From the NCBI GenBank assembly GCA_903813345.2, contig CAIIXF020000001.1, positions 10,354,001-10,418,000 of the forward strand: 64,000 bases of DNA. Reading direction: 5' to 3'. Position numbers and translations under genes: made by a program. Positions 15,580 to 21,500 of the stretch are shown in pieces; the stretch's first letter is position 1, and each line of letters opens with the position of its first letter. The notes beneath the pieces are model-generated. The model saw nothing but the letters and a program-made list of their open reading frames with translations. It was not told the DNA's origin and ran no database searches. Source of the DNA: Owenia fusiformis (taxonomy: Eukaryota).

Positions 15580-18500
15580 CCCTAGAACAGATCCCCAATT
15601 CTGTAAGACTGTGGAAGTTGGCTGTAGAGCTAGAGGATCAGGAAGATGCTAGGATTATGTTGAGTCGTGCTGTGGAGTGTTGCCCCACAAGTGTAGAGGT
15701 AGGCTACAATTATCTACAATTTCTAAATGGCTGTACATGTATTTTGTTTATTAATTATTTATGTTTGTTTTTCAATGTCTGTTACAAGTAGGTCACCATG
15801 ACCTGCATAGATTTATCAAAAATCATTTTCTAAATGATTACAATTTAAATTTTGAGCATTGTTTAAAAAAGTCAATCCTGTTTCTGAAAACATTGAAAGG
15901 GAAGATCATCCACAATCAAACTAAAAATAACTTTTACTCTTTCACCAGTTCAATATTTTGATTGACAGCTCTATTTTTGGAAGTGAAATTGATGTCCTGT
16001 GTTAAAACTCCAAGGTCAAGCTGATCTGGTCATTCTCTAAGACAATTAAGAAACAGATTTTTCATAGAAATTAATCAGTTCTATCTTTAAATTTCTCAAT
16101 TAAAACATATTTATAGAAAAATTGACCTTTTAAACCATTCTTGTCTATCTAATATCAGTTTAAGTAAGAGGTTTTTATCATAATTATTTTTGTCTGAAAG
16201 GGAGATTTTGCAGTGTTTTGTAGGACTGTTTTGTCAAAGAAATTGTAAATAGAAAGCACAATTCCCCAATCTTCACAAGTTCAGGGTTTCATTTGAATTT
16301 TTTGTGTGGTGGAAAAATCAGTTATGCCAGATGAGGATGACATTGGTTCAATGTTTACGTCATAAAATGAGGCATTTTTGATAATTATCAGATCTCAAAA
16401 TGACATAATATTACCGCTCCAAGGCTCTTTTACCTATTTTAATATTCTAGGTAGACAATTAAAAGTCTTTCCAAGCGAATACACACAAAATTAAACATGA
16501 ATCCTTAATGTATTCCTCAGATTGATTTTTTAAAACCTACTTCAAACCTACATCTTAGTGTTCACTTCAAATCAGTTAATAGTGACACCATACATCTAAA
16601 GTGTACAACGGTATATTTTGTCAATGTACGTTGTTGATGGTTAGGCATGGTAGAAGAAATGTTCAACATGACAGCTCAATTCAAAATGAAATCTTTGATA
16701 AATTAAATACCAGTTGTCAGATTTAGTTCTTTTTTAAAATTTTGATTTGATGTTTATTTTGGAAACATTACCAAACATGGAAATATTCAACACGTTTAAA
16801 ACATATTTTGTGTTAACTAAACATAATTTGTCAAAGTTAGATCCATTTAAGTTATAAACTCTGTGACTGATGTCTTTTATATTTGTAGTTATGGCTGGCT
16901 CTTGCAAGACTTGAGAATTATGAGAATGCACGTAAAGTGTTGAACAAAGCACGTGAGAGTATCCCTACTGATAGGCAGATCTGGATCTCTGCAGCTAAAC
17001 TTGAAGAAGCAAACGGCAACATACATATGATTGAGAAAATTATAGACAGGGGTAAGTGGGGTTGCCCTTTCAGAATAAGAATATTGTATACAATGTCTGT
17101 ATTCATGTGTATTGTAGATTCTGTATCTTTCATCTTTTCAACAACTCTGTATAGCAAATTATGGGCATTATGTTTATGATATTTTTATGAAAATGAAATG
17201 CGTTTTTACTCCAATAAATAATCTCTACCACCCAGGTTTAAGCATAAACATTTTAAACATATGTTTTTTCAGCTCTGGCATCCCTACGTGCAAACATGGT
17301 GGAGATTAATCGTGAACAGTGGATCAAAGATGCTGAAGATTGCGAGTCTGCTGGCAGTATACATACATGTCAAGTAATAGTGTGAGTATATATACGTCAA
17401 GTAATAATGTGAGTATACATACATGTAACGTTATAGTGTGAGTATACATACATGTCAAGTAATAGTGTGAGTATACATACATGTCAAGTAATAGTGTGAG
17501 TATACATACATGTCAAGTTATAGTGTGAGTATACATACATGTCAAGTAATAGTGTGAGTATACATACATGTCGAGTTATAGTGTGAGTTTACATACATGT
17601 CAAGTAATAGTGTTAGTATACATACATGTCAAGTAATAGTGTGAGTATACATACATGTCAAGTTATAGTGTGAGTATACATACATGTCAAGTAATAGTGT
17701 GAGTATACATACATGTCGAGTTATAGTGTGAGTTTACATACATGTCAAGTAATAGTGTTAGTATACATACATGTCAAGTAATAATGTGAGTTTACATACA
17801 TGTCAAGTAATAGTGTTAGTACAGGGTGTTCCAAAAGTAACAGGACTGGTGCTGGCATTTTGTTAAATATGCACCAATCGTCTTCAAAATGTTACATAAT
17901 GTACTTTCATGTATCATTACTAAAACTGCAAAGTTTCAACAAAAAATATGTAACTCGGGTAGAGATATGGTTGCTATGGTAACATGACATCACAATACCC
18001 GGGGCAGCATTCCACGCAGACAGTTACATTAAGACAGAAAGAGACATTTAAGCATTTTGTACATCCCATATCAAAGTTGAAATGCAACAACTGGTGGGAA
18101 TTACATTTGTTTTACATCATTTGATATTTCCATGTATCCTATGTACTTAGGCTCCTCTTTTGGTCAGTAGAAAAATAGCACTCTGTATCCATGACTCAAA
18201 CACATGAGTGAACCCATTTGAGGACATGTCAGGCACGGTTGATTGAACAACTTGGAGAAGGTCTTTCTCATCTTTAAAGATCTTACAGCACTGATTAGCA
18301 TTCCATTCTCCATGTAAGTAAAAATTGAATGTTGCATGATCAGAAGAGTATGGTGCATGGTTTTAGAACTCAAGACCTAGCTCCTCTATACCTGCATGGT
18401 GTTTAATGGTGACCTGCGGGCAGGCACGTTATCAAGGTGGATGGGTCTTTTGGGTCTTTTCAAAAACTCAACCATGAATTGTTCAGACTGTAATTCATAG

Positions 18501-21500
18501 TGATATTCCAGGAAATTGAATAAATATTATTATTATTATGAAATTATACTTGAATCTGAGTTTTATAGCAACACCTTTACAACAAAGCAACTAATAAAAT
18601 ATACAAGAAATGTTGTATTATAATAGGTGAATTAGATACTTTCTTCGGTAACACAAAAATGTTAGATATCACATTTTCAGAAAAAAGTTGCCCTGGGTAT
18701 TGTGATGTCATGTTACTATAGTAACCACAACTCTACCCGCATTTCATCATTTTTTCTGAAACTATAATATTTTAGTTGCAATACTTCAATGTACAATTTG
18801 TGAAAATTTGAAGACACTGGGTGCAAAATTGACAAAATGCCAGCACCAGTCCTGTTACTTTTGGAACACCCTGTATACATGTCAAGTAATAGTGTTAGTA
18901 TACATACATGTCAAGTAATAGTGTGAGTATACATACATGTCAAGTTATAGTGTGAGTATACATACATGTCAAGTAATAGTGTGAGTATACATACATGTCG
19001 AGTTATAGTGTGAGTTTACATACATGTCAAGTAATAGTGTTAGTATACATGTCAAGTCATTGGATACATATAAATGACAACTAATATAAGTACATGACAA
19101 GTTATTGCTTAAACATTCAGAGTGATTCAGAAGTAACATCCAAAGGAGTTGCTGTTTCAATACTACTTGACTAATCATGTTTAAACTTGGTACAGATGTA
19201 ATACATTAATGAGTAAAGATATCAAAAATAAACATCTGTACCAAGTTTCACAAAGATTGGTCCAGTAGTATTGCAATAGTAACATCACAATGGCAATTAC
19301 ACTTCTCCTGGCATGTAATTTCAGGCGTGCAGTGATAGGCGTTGGTGTGGAGGAGGAAGATAGGAAACATACCTGGATGGAGGATGCTGAGGCTGTAAGT
19401 AGAATAAAGTATACAATTATTGGTCTTTCTATAGGTTCATAATGAAACCCCTGTAGCTGAGACTGAGACTGTAGATCAAGGTTTACATTTAGGAGTGGAT
19501 ATAATTTGACAGCCAACTGAATAGAGATGTATTAAAAATAAACTGTTTATTGCTCTCTTATCTGACTAAAAGGAGATTTGCTATCAATGCCCAGGCTCTC
19601 ACTGTTTCTTGTTTTCTTTATAGTCTGCCTCACATGGAGTGTATGAGTGTGCAAGAGCTATCTATGAGTGTGCAAGAGCTATCTATACCCAGGCACTCGC
19701 TATTACTTGTTTTCTTCATAGTCTGCCTCACACAGAGCGTATGAGTGTCAAGAGCTATCTATGCCCAGGCACTCACTGTTTCTTGTTTTCTTTATAGTCT
19801 GCCTCACATGGAGTGTATGAGTGTGCAAGAGCTATCTATGAGTGTGCAAGAGCTATCTATGAGTGTGCAAGAGCTATCTATACCCAGGCACTCGCTATGC
19901 TATTACTTGTTTTCTTTATAGTCTGCATCACATGGGGGGTAGGAGTGTGCAAGAGCTATCTATGCCCAGGCACTCACTATTTCTTGTTTTCTTTATAGTC
20001 TGCATCACATTGGGCGTATGAGTGTGCAAGAGCTATCTATGCCCAGGCACTCACTATGAGTGTGCAAGAGCTATCTATGCCCAGGCACTCACTGTTTCTT
20101 GTTTTTCTTTATAGTCTGCATCACATGGAGTGTATGAGTGTGCAAGAGCTATCTATGAGTGTGCAAGAGCTATCTATACCCAGGCACTCGCTATTACTTG
20201 TTTTCTTTATAGTCTGCATCACATGGGGGGTATGAGTGTGCAAGAGCTATCTATGCCCAGGCACTCACTATTTCTTGTTTTCTTTATAGTCTGCATCACA
20301 TTGGGCGTATGAGTGTGCAAGAGCTATCTATGCCCAGGCACTCACTATTTCTTGTTTTCTTTATAGTCTGCATCACATGGGGCGTATGAGTGTGCAAGAG
20401 CTATCTATGCCCAGGCACTCACTATTTCTTGTTTTCTTTATAGTCTGCATCACATGGAGCGTATGAGTGTGCAAGAGCTATCTATGCCCAGGCACTCACT
20501 ATTTCTTGTTTTCTTTATAGTCTGCATCACATGGAGCGTATGAGTGTGCAAAAGCTATCTATGCCCAGGCACTCACTATTTCTTGTTTTCTTTATAGTCT
20601 GCCTAACATGGAGCGTATGAGTGTGCAAAAGCTATCTATGCCCAGGCATTCACTATTTCTTGTTTTCTTTATAGTCTGCATCACATGGAGCGTATGAGTG
20701 TGCAAGAGCTATCTATGCCCAGGCACTCACTATTTCTTGTTTTCTTTATAGTCTGCATCACATGGAGCGAATGAGTGTGCAAGAGCTATCTATGCCCAGG
20801 CACTCACTATTTCTTGTTTTTCTTTATAGTCTGCATCACATGGGGCGTATGAGTGTGCAAGAGCTATCTATGCCCAGGCACTCACTATTTCTTGTTTTCT
20901 TTATAGTCTGCGTCACATGGAGCGAATGAGTGTGCAAGAGCTATCTATGCCCAGGCACTCACTATTTCTTGCTTTCTTTATAGTCTGCATCACATGGAGC
21001 GTATGAGTGTGCAAGAGCTATCTATGCCCAGGCACTCACTATTTCTTGTTTTCTTTATAGTCTGCATCACATGGAGCGTATGAGTGTGCAAGAGCTATCT
21101 ATGCCCAGGCACTCACTATTTCTTGTTTTCTTTATAGTCTGCATCACATGGGGCGTATGAGTGTGCAAGAGCTATCTATGCCCAGGCACTCACTATTTCT
21201 TGTTTTCTTTATAGTCTGCATCACATGGAGCGAATGAGTGTGCAAGAGCTATCTATGCCCAGGCACTCACTATTTCTTGCTTTCTTTATAGTCTGCATCA
21301 CATGGAGCGTATGAGTGTGCAAGAGCTATCTATGCCCAGGCACTTACTATTTCTTGTTTTCTTTATAGTCTGCATCACATGGAGCGTATGAGTGTGCAAG
21401 AGCTATCTATGCCCAGGCATTCACTATTTCTTGTTTTCTTTATAGTCTGCATCACATGGAGCGTATGAGTGTGCAAGAGCTATCTATGCCCAGGCACTCA

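Follow-up and report, generated by a model that had tools for sequence, protein, structure and literature searches.

How does a gene come to carry 22 copies of the same 5' splice site in one intron, and which of them does it use? The question is raised by a stretch of 64,000 nucleotides from the annelid Owenia fusiformis (GenBank assembly GCA_903813345.2, contig CAIIXF020000001.1, positions 10,354,001 to 10,418,000 of the forward strand; hereafter the window, in whose numbering all positions are given), which contains part of the gene for pre-mRNA-processing factor 6 (PRPF6). A first-pass annotation of this stretch had described about 22 tandem copies of a donor site behind one PRPF6 exon, together with an array of acceptor sites in the next intron, and had taken the pair as a hint of selection or of a duplication mechanism directed at splice junctions. 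We conclude that the donor array is very probably a junction-spanning intronic minisatellite of the type known from intron 7 of human F7, intron 13 of CBS and IFI6 and from the 'mirages' of lancelets, and that it is best read as neutral.

The repeat-bearing exon belongs to PRPF6

The 55-residue translation of the exon upstream of the array matches PRPF6 proteins across animals and is closest by identity (98%) to P0031, a protein of 929 amino acids labelled Owenia fusiformis pre-mRNA-processing factor 6. A tblastn search of the window with P0031 gave 100% identity at 17272-17382, 19326-19394 and 21754-21876, among other exons. A scripted spliced alignment reproduced residues 384-929 of P0031 exactly; all 14 exon cores were exact, and each of the 13 PRPF6 introns in the window had a single GT..AG solution. 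Among solved structures, the repeat-bearing exon matched residues 492-525 of human Prp6 (E 1e-12). The assignment of the exon to PRPF6, which the annotation had made from the sequence, is confirmed by the exact translation to P0031.

A 29-bp unit across the exon-intron boundary is repeated 22 times

Tandem Repeats Finder (TRF) detected the donor array in two parts, one at 17356-17821 (period 29, 16.1 copies, 91% matches, score 792) and one at 18875-19050 (6.1 copies, 93% matches), with a decayed tail that reaches 19086 (TRF row 18874-19086, 82% matches). The locus is a head-to-tail tandem array with a unit of minisatellite size, in total 22 units of 29 bp that are split by a transposon into 16 and 6. 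A search of the window with the 29-mer consensus, allowing at most three mismatches, gave 20 matches, all of them at this locus, and 100 shuffles gave none. Only two units were found to be off-length, unit 2 (27 nt) and unit 17 (25 nt), the latter being split by the insertion.

Unit 1 consists of the last 26 nt of exon 17273-17381 plus GTG, as had been proposed. The boundary 17381/17382 is fixed by exact spliced translation, and the first monomer therefore lies across the exon-intron boundary of a real and conserved exon. Over all 29 nt, unit 1 matches the array consensus and seven other units. The peptide encoded by unit 1, GS.xTCQxI[IV]R, is kept in the 65 PRPF6 proteins that align without gaps, of 120 fetched, which indicates that the array was copied from the exon and not the reverse. 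The codon for residue 512 (17374-17376), which lies inside the repeat unit, encodes Val, and among the 65 aligned proteins 54 have Ala and 2 have Val at this position. This Val codon creates CAA/GTAATA, a second donor-like motif in every unit.

The count of about 22 donor copies proved accurate: anchoring on the donor motif gave 22 donor-like sites in the locus (17 GTGAGT and 5 GTTAGT), spaced by 29 nt throughout except for one step of 27 nt. The authentic splice site thus recurs as identical pseudo-sites, with 16 of the 21 later hexamers being GTGAGT, as in the working donor, and the other 5 being GTTAGT. Three blocks of 145 bp, each consisting of five units, are mutually identical at 145 of 145 positions; two of them lie in the part of the array before the transposon and the third beyond it, which hints at recent turnover. 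The most diverged units are the edge units 2 and 3. By eye, and uncounted formally, the units show about ten independent variants over 29 positions, one of which falls inside the hexamer; this number is too small to test selection. The predicted DNA fold of five donor units was less stable than that of shuffled sequences (z = +2.4, with 200 of 200 shuffles folding at least as well), and slippage driven by hairpins is thus not supported. An Rfam search of 13000-27500 gave nothing at gathering score.

The most upstream donor is used and all later donors lead to a stop codon

If the first donor is read through, the frame continues with GTG (17380-17382) and TGA (17383-17385). Transcripts spliced at any of the 21 later donors meet this stop, and the claim that every later donor is unproductive was therefore correct.

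Four sequencing runs of the same organism (X1, X4, X5 and X7) were compared over 13000-19570, all of them in the form of contigs, which drop rare variants. X1 is a DNA run, and the RNA status of X4, X5 and X7 is a guess. In X7, one contig of 1,251 nt joins 15696 to 16887, 17050 to 17272 and 17381 to 19325, each across a GT..AG intron, and all three joins are absent from the DNA run X1. The protein model P0031 needs the same junction between 17381 and 19325. The contig and the protein model agree that the mature mRNA is spliced at the most upstream donor. The first-pass annotation had proposed to map RNA junctions that end at 19325: the one from 17381 was found, and no join from a later donor to 19325 is listed in the four runs, which is weak evidence as contigs leave out rare variants. 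X4 and X5 contain only unspliced pieces at a depth below 10, and no joins in PRPF6. Since all runs are contigs, the data show the first donor in use and do not show that later donors are never used.

Array sequence is present in contigs from three runs of three samples, namely X1, X4 (with a variant at 17523) and X5 (a piece of 86 nt, 17470-17555), so the array is not peculiar to one data set. It could be argued that the array or its copy number results from mis-assembly of repeats, as tandem arrays are error-prone in assemblies and the short-read contigs break at the edge of the array, with one piece from each of X1, X4 and X5 terminating at 17385. An artefact of this kind is nevertheless extremely unlikely in view of the array contigs from three samples, the ordered internal structure of the array and the clean insertion of the transposon with its TA flanks.

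The donor copies had also been suggested to act as a sink for the U1 small nuclear ribonucleoprotein. No observation made here speaks for such a sink. Considering the abundance of U1, 21 sites in one pre-mRNA cannot titrate it; local binding is possible, and a global U1 sink is implausible.

A transposon with terminal inverted repeats splits the array

The annotation had treated 17356-19057 as one continuous array. The repeats in this span are real, but the array is interrupted, and 1,052 of the 1,702 bp belong to an inserted element at 17822-18873. The element has terminal inverted repeats of 192 nt, the arms of which are 81% complementary, and it is flanked by TA at 17820-17821 and 18874-18875, splitting unit 17. 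Beyond the right end of the element, X1 has 21 contigs (9 leaving at 18876 and 12 at 18877) that continue into mutually unlike sequence, as expected from many copies of the element elsewhere in the genome; within the window there is one copy. The summed contig depth over the transposon is very high, which is not a copy number and was not used as one. The element is non-autonomous. It carries the terminal inverted repeats and the TA target-site duplication of a transposon, and three of its open reading frames (ORFs) show no Pfam family above threshold. Remnants of a mariner transposase were considered as well and were not borne out, the three ORFs giving one sub-threshold match, to Med27 (E 0.077). 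Placement in the Tc1/mariner group is tentative, with the TA flanks as its sole pointer. In the pre-mRNA, the arms of the element could form a long hairpin inside the intron.

The intron that carries the donor array is 1,943 nt long, of which 599 nt are array, 1,054 nt are transposon and 290 nt remain. For comparison, lengths of 221-363 nt are found in 9 of the 13 introns of PRPF6 that the window covers.

The next intron carries an array of acceptor sites

The annotation had described the two introns that flank the 70-nt exon as carrying mirror-image arrays, and this description holds. In the next intron (19395-21753) the repeated unit is about 77 bp long and consists of 21 nt of the 3' end of the intron and 56 nt of the start of the following exon. 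The array comprises 27 acceptor copies, each with a pyrimidine tract, AG and exon start, of which the last alone is in frame and productive; splicing at any of the 26 copies upstream leads to a premature stop. The protein model and the reading frames predict that the last acceptor is used. The 5' end of the array is irregular and has an extra sub-repeat of 21 bp. Without its array, this intron would be about 206 nt long.

TRF found five tandem-repeat loci in the mapped PRPF6 introns, a sample which is small, comes from one gene and was picked after the fact. Two of the loci cross a junction, one abuts the AG of an acceptor, one lies near an exon and one is in the middle of an intron (24756-24813). 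The repeat at 22076-22140 (unit of 20-21 bp, 2.2-2.5 copies) ends 12 nt before exon 22153.

Junction-spanning minisatellites are known from human and lancelet genes

Arrays of this architecture have been described before. In intron 7 of human F7, the first element of a 37-bp variable number of tandem repeats (VNTR) crosses the exon-intron boundary, and the most upstream of 5-9 identical donors is the only one used (PMC1557585), which has been credited to 5'-to-3' scanning (Borensztajn et al., 2006; PMC1557585). The PRPF6 array resembles this case in that the first monomer lies across the boundary, in that an authentic donor is followed by identical pseudo-donors and in that the most upstream site is used. 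It differs in having 22 copies with 26 of 29 nt exonic, compared with 5-9 copies and 4 exonic nt per unit in F7. Its host is a splicing-factor gene of an annelid, a transposon interrupts the array, and an acceptor array in the next intron accompanies it. Copy-number polymorphism has been shown for F7, whereas the PRPF6 count comes from the assembly.

Comparable junction repeats have been reported for IFI6 (25 pseudo-sites), CBS intron 13 (31 bp, 15-20 repeats), LMNB2 (100 bp) and PDGF (81 bp), and in the human junction repeats splicing is confined to the upstream site or to the first few (PMC1557585). These loci are, like the PRPF6 array, minisatellites that repeat an exon/intron junction, in their case 10-25 times, and CBS (15-20 repeats) and IFI6 (25 pseudo-sites) are near to it both in the length and in the number of their units. 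Splicing at the first two pseudo-sites also occurs in CBS and IFI6, whereas in PRPF6 no such use was seen in the contigs and any would introduce a stop.

In lancelets, minisatellite-like duplications of intron/exon boundaries, the 'mirages', are found at both 5' and 3' boundaries and leave splicing undisturbed (PMC3087553, PMC3902484). Their core units are homogenised and their edge units diverged (PMC3087553). Boundary repeats at 5' and 3' sites are described for Adh3, the globins BflGb6 and BflGb9, PGBD5 and troponin C (PMC3087553, PMC3902484); for Adh3, a range of unit lengths from 10 to 72 bp suggests, and does not show, that this gene has more than one repeat. The PRPF6 arrays share with the mirages the occurrence at both kinds of boundary, and further points of resemblance are the units of 10-160 bp, the concerted evolution, the diverged edges and the regular splicing that goes on undisturbed. 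The lancelet cases differ in that they belong to a different phylum and in that the globins have 3-6 copies, against 22 and 27 in PRPF6. Somatic and allelic instability has been shown in lancelet, whereas the PRPF6 arrays are known from their sequence. The original description of the lancelet mirages is reportedly that of Canestro et al. in 2002.

A related proposal is the model of Rogers, in which introns are gained or shifted by tandem duplication across AG/GT proto-splice sites and extra splice sites can be recruited (PMC3087553). PRPF6 shows such a duplication with recruitable extra sites, but no new exon or intron was formed and the extra sites are all unproductive. Intron gain by tandem duplication is said to have been treated also by Zhuo et al. 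in 2007.

In the literature searched, the coverage of which was incomplete, we found no report of a junction-spanning minisatellite in an annelid or in PRPF6. The locus thus extends to an annelid an oddity known from a handful of human genes and from lancelet. It also amounts to a clean natural experiment in splice-site choice, with 22 near-identical donors and 27 near-identical acceptors in one transcript; judging from the present data, splicing takes place only at the copy next to the true exon in each case.

The comparison bears on the idea that the extra sites serve a purpose. Selection could maintain the pseudo-donors and, in the next intron, the pseudo-acceptors as regulated decoys: a varying fraction of the PRPF6 pre-mRNA would be spliced at them, would thereby acquire a stop and be degraded, and PRPF6 would feed back on its own level. 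Many splicing factors autoregulate through unproductive splicing, the host is a gene of the core tri-snRNP, a premature stop follows from each of the 21 later donors and each of the 26 upstream acceptors, and 16 of the 21 later hexamers are the same as the working GTGAGT. We nevertheless find such regulation quite improbable. The four runs contain no join from a later donor to 19325, which counts weakly as they are contigs, and unrelated genes of human and lancelet have this architecture without such a role. Moreover, the identity of the three 145-bp blocks speaks for recent neutral turnover and not for a conserved element, and the array has a transposon in its interior.

Neutral turnover in short introns as the likely origin

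The minisatellite would have arisen when 29 bp across the boundary, 26 nt from the end of the conserved exon and 3 nt from the start of the intron, were duplicated in tandem. The array would then have grown to 22 units by unequal exchange or slippage, partly in blocks of five units (145 bp), before a transposon with terminal inverted repeats inserted into it. The first copy stayed the end of the exon and the working donor, in agreement with the contig and the protein model, and the 21 downstream copies would be silent intronic pseudo-sites. Use of any of them leads at once to TGA, and presumably to nonsense-mediated decay thereafter. The first donor is probably chosen by its position beside the body of the exon, which would fit the 5'-to-3' first-site rule of F7 or exon definition. 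Repeat turnover in an intron of originally about 290 nt most likely produced the array as a by-product with little or no selective effect, and it is probably not a device kept by selection.

The likelihood of meeting two junction arrays by chance was approached with a neutral model of random duplication placement. This model assumes that a duplication across a junction is tolerated as well as an intronic one, and its values are calculated and not measured. A 29-bp duplication in an intron of 290 nt spans a given junction with a probability of 8.8% and either junction with 17.6%; for a 77-bp duplication in an intron of 206 nt these values are 27% and 54%. As the introns would measure only about 290 and 206 nt if the arrays were absent, two junction arrays on their own do not call for selection or for a special mechanism. 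The hint of selection is accordingly not upheld, considering also that the class of repeats is a described and apparently tolerated one and that the neutral model allows 2.4-9.5% for the pair.

Tandem duplications could instead arise preferentially at exon-intron boundaries, through a DNA- or RNA-templated process linked to the boundary and perhaps acting in lancelets as well. Two of the five TRF loci in the PRPF6 introns cross a junction, one abuts an acceptor AG and one ends 12 nt before an exon; the pair of arrays scores 2.4-9.5% under the neutral model, and the mechanism of the lancelet mirages has been called unclear (PMC3087553). We give this origin some weight but consider it unlikely. 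The sample is small, post hoc and from one gene, short introns by themselves make junction overlap common, and the unit has no tendency to form hairpins (the fold with z = +2.4, which 200 of 200 shuffles equalled or surpassed). The junction-directed mechanism of the annotation is not supported, as in introns this short the simple neutral model puts 9.5% on both arrays touching a junction and 2.4% on the exact arrangement. Were junction arrays found to exceed chance genome-wide, this would bear on the origin of the mirages and on intron gain by tandem duplication.

Several observations weigh against a neutral minisatellite. The neutral model gives 9.5% for both arrays touching a junction and 2.4% for the exact arrangement. 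A further duplication in PRPF6, two copies of 27 bp at 24039-24092, abuts the AG of an acceptor, 2 nt before exon 24095, and the mechanism that generates boundary repeats in lancelet is considered unclear (PMC3087553). Copy-number polymorphism is a hallmark of a VNTR, and the copy number given here is a count in the assembly. The support from RNA is a single contig from one run of guessed RNA status, and use of later donors at a low level or under certain conditions is possible. One authentic PRPF6 donor, at 22727-22732, is aga/GTTAGT and has the same hexamer as five array units, which are thus not obviously dead. Finally, an inverted 12-nt motif is common to both arrays, in 18 donor and 20 acceptor units.

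An inverted motif shared by both arrays is probably due to chance

The shared motif was followed through the window with at most one mismatch. The sequence CAAGTAATAGTG has 18 matches on the plus strand of the donor array (17371-19039) and 20 on the minus strand of the acceptor array (19698-21664), two of the latter being perfect. Outside both arrays there are two matches, and 0.68 matches are expected window-wide. The motif includes a donor-like hexamer on the minus strand of the acceptor array (19 GTGAGT and 1 GTTAGT). In the acceptor unit it straddles the breakpoint that was made by the duplication. The RNA duplex predicted for two units of each array has an energy of -31.2 kcal/mol; with the acceptor unit shuffled the energy is -23.9 ± 3.7 kcal/mol and 16 of 500 shuffles are as good, and with the donor unit shuffled 61 of 500 are as good.

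These figures raise the possibility that the arrays pair with each other through the motif, which might cover the pseudo-donors along with the pyrimidine tracts in front of the pseudo-acceptors, or might loop out the 70-nt exon. The numbers of matches on opposite strands (18 and 20 against 0.68 expected) and the duplex energy, which only 16 of 500 acceptor-unit shuffles reach, would fit such a model. Pairing is nonetheless very improbable: 61 of 500 donor-unit shuffles do as well, the commonest form of the acceptor unit carries the motif with a mismatch, comparison of the units by eye, without a count, revealed no variants that correspond between the arrays, and the motif was found after the fact. 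Furthermore, intron 3 may be spliced before the acceptor array is transcribed. We regard the shared inverted motif as probably a matter of chance. A wider speculation would make the 22 donors and 27 acceptors a functional pair that zips up in the pre-mRNA, masking pseudo-sites or looping out the frame-shifting 70-nt exon, with PRPF6 output serving as a sensor of splicing kinetics or fidelity and, more broadly, with a junction-directed origin of mirages in general; this has a slim chance of being right.

Other features of the window

The coordinates of the array, of the exons around it and of other features in the window are given in Table 1.

Table 1. Features of the window and the observations on which each is based.
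Feature	Position	Strand	Basis
PRPF6 exon, amino acids 478-514 of P0031; last 26 nt form the exonic part of unit 1	17273-17381	+	tblastn, spliced translation
Repeat unit 1, across the exon/intron boundary	17356-17384	+	TRF, unit listing, consensus search
Authentic 5' splice site agt/GTGAGT, sole donor seen joined to 19325	17382-17387	+	X7 contig, protein model
In-frame TGA met by transcripts spliced at later donors	17383-17385	+	
Array part A: units 2-16 and first 4 nt of unit 17, 15 pseudo-donors	17385-17821	+	
Non-autonomous element with terminal inverted repeats	17822-18873		Inverted-repeat arms, TA flanks
Array part B: remainder of unit 17 and units 18-22, 6 pseudo-donors	18876-19041	+	
Decayed distal repeat units, 3' edge of array	19042-19086	+	TRF and sequence reading
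70-nt PRPF6 exon, amino acids 515-537, between both array-bearing introns	19325-19394	+	tblastn, contig, spliced translation
Acceptor-side array, 26 pseudo-acceptors upstream of the authentic one	19580-21753 (copies to 21810)	+	TRF, tblastn, frames
PRPF6 exon, amino acids 538-578, begins at last acceptor copy	21754-21875	+	tblastn, spliced translation, frames
Lipoyl-domain protein	34734-35015	-	Single-exon Pfam match
Serine hydroxymethyltransferase (SHMT)	53065-53295	+	Single-exon Pfam match
NHL-repeat protein	58308-59558	-	Single-exon Pfam match
Death-domain protein	60258-60629	-	Single-exon Pfam match

Exons for PRPF6 residues 1-382 were not found in the window, the only tblastn matches being to paralogous repeats within PRPF6 itself. 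The intron before the first mapped PRPF6 exon may exceed 15 kb and have another gene inside it; alternatively, the 5' exons lie elsewhere. On the opposite strand, an exon of a sodium:neurotransmitter symporter is present at 2786-3055 (Pfam SNF, E 1.7e-25).

Two composite repeats, at 953-2260 and 50500-52250, each combine a short G/T-rich array with a 136-bp satellite behind it, which is present in 5.5 and 9.5 copies, respectively. Judged from the ORFs, one of them lies near the SNF-family exons of the minus strand and the other between SHMT-like ORFs.

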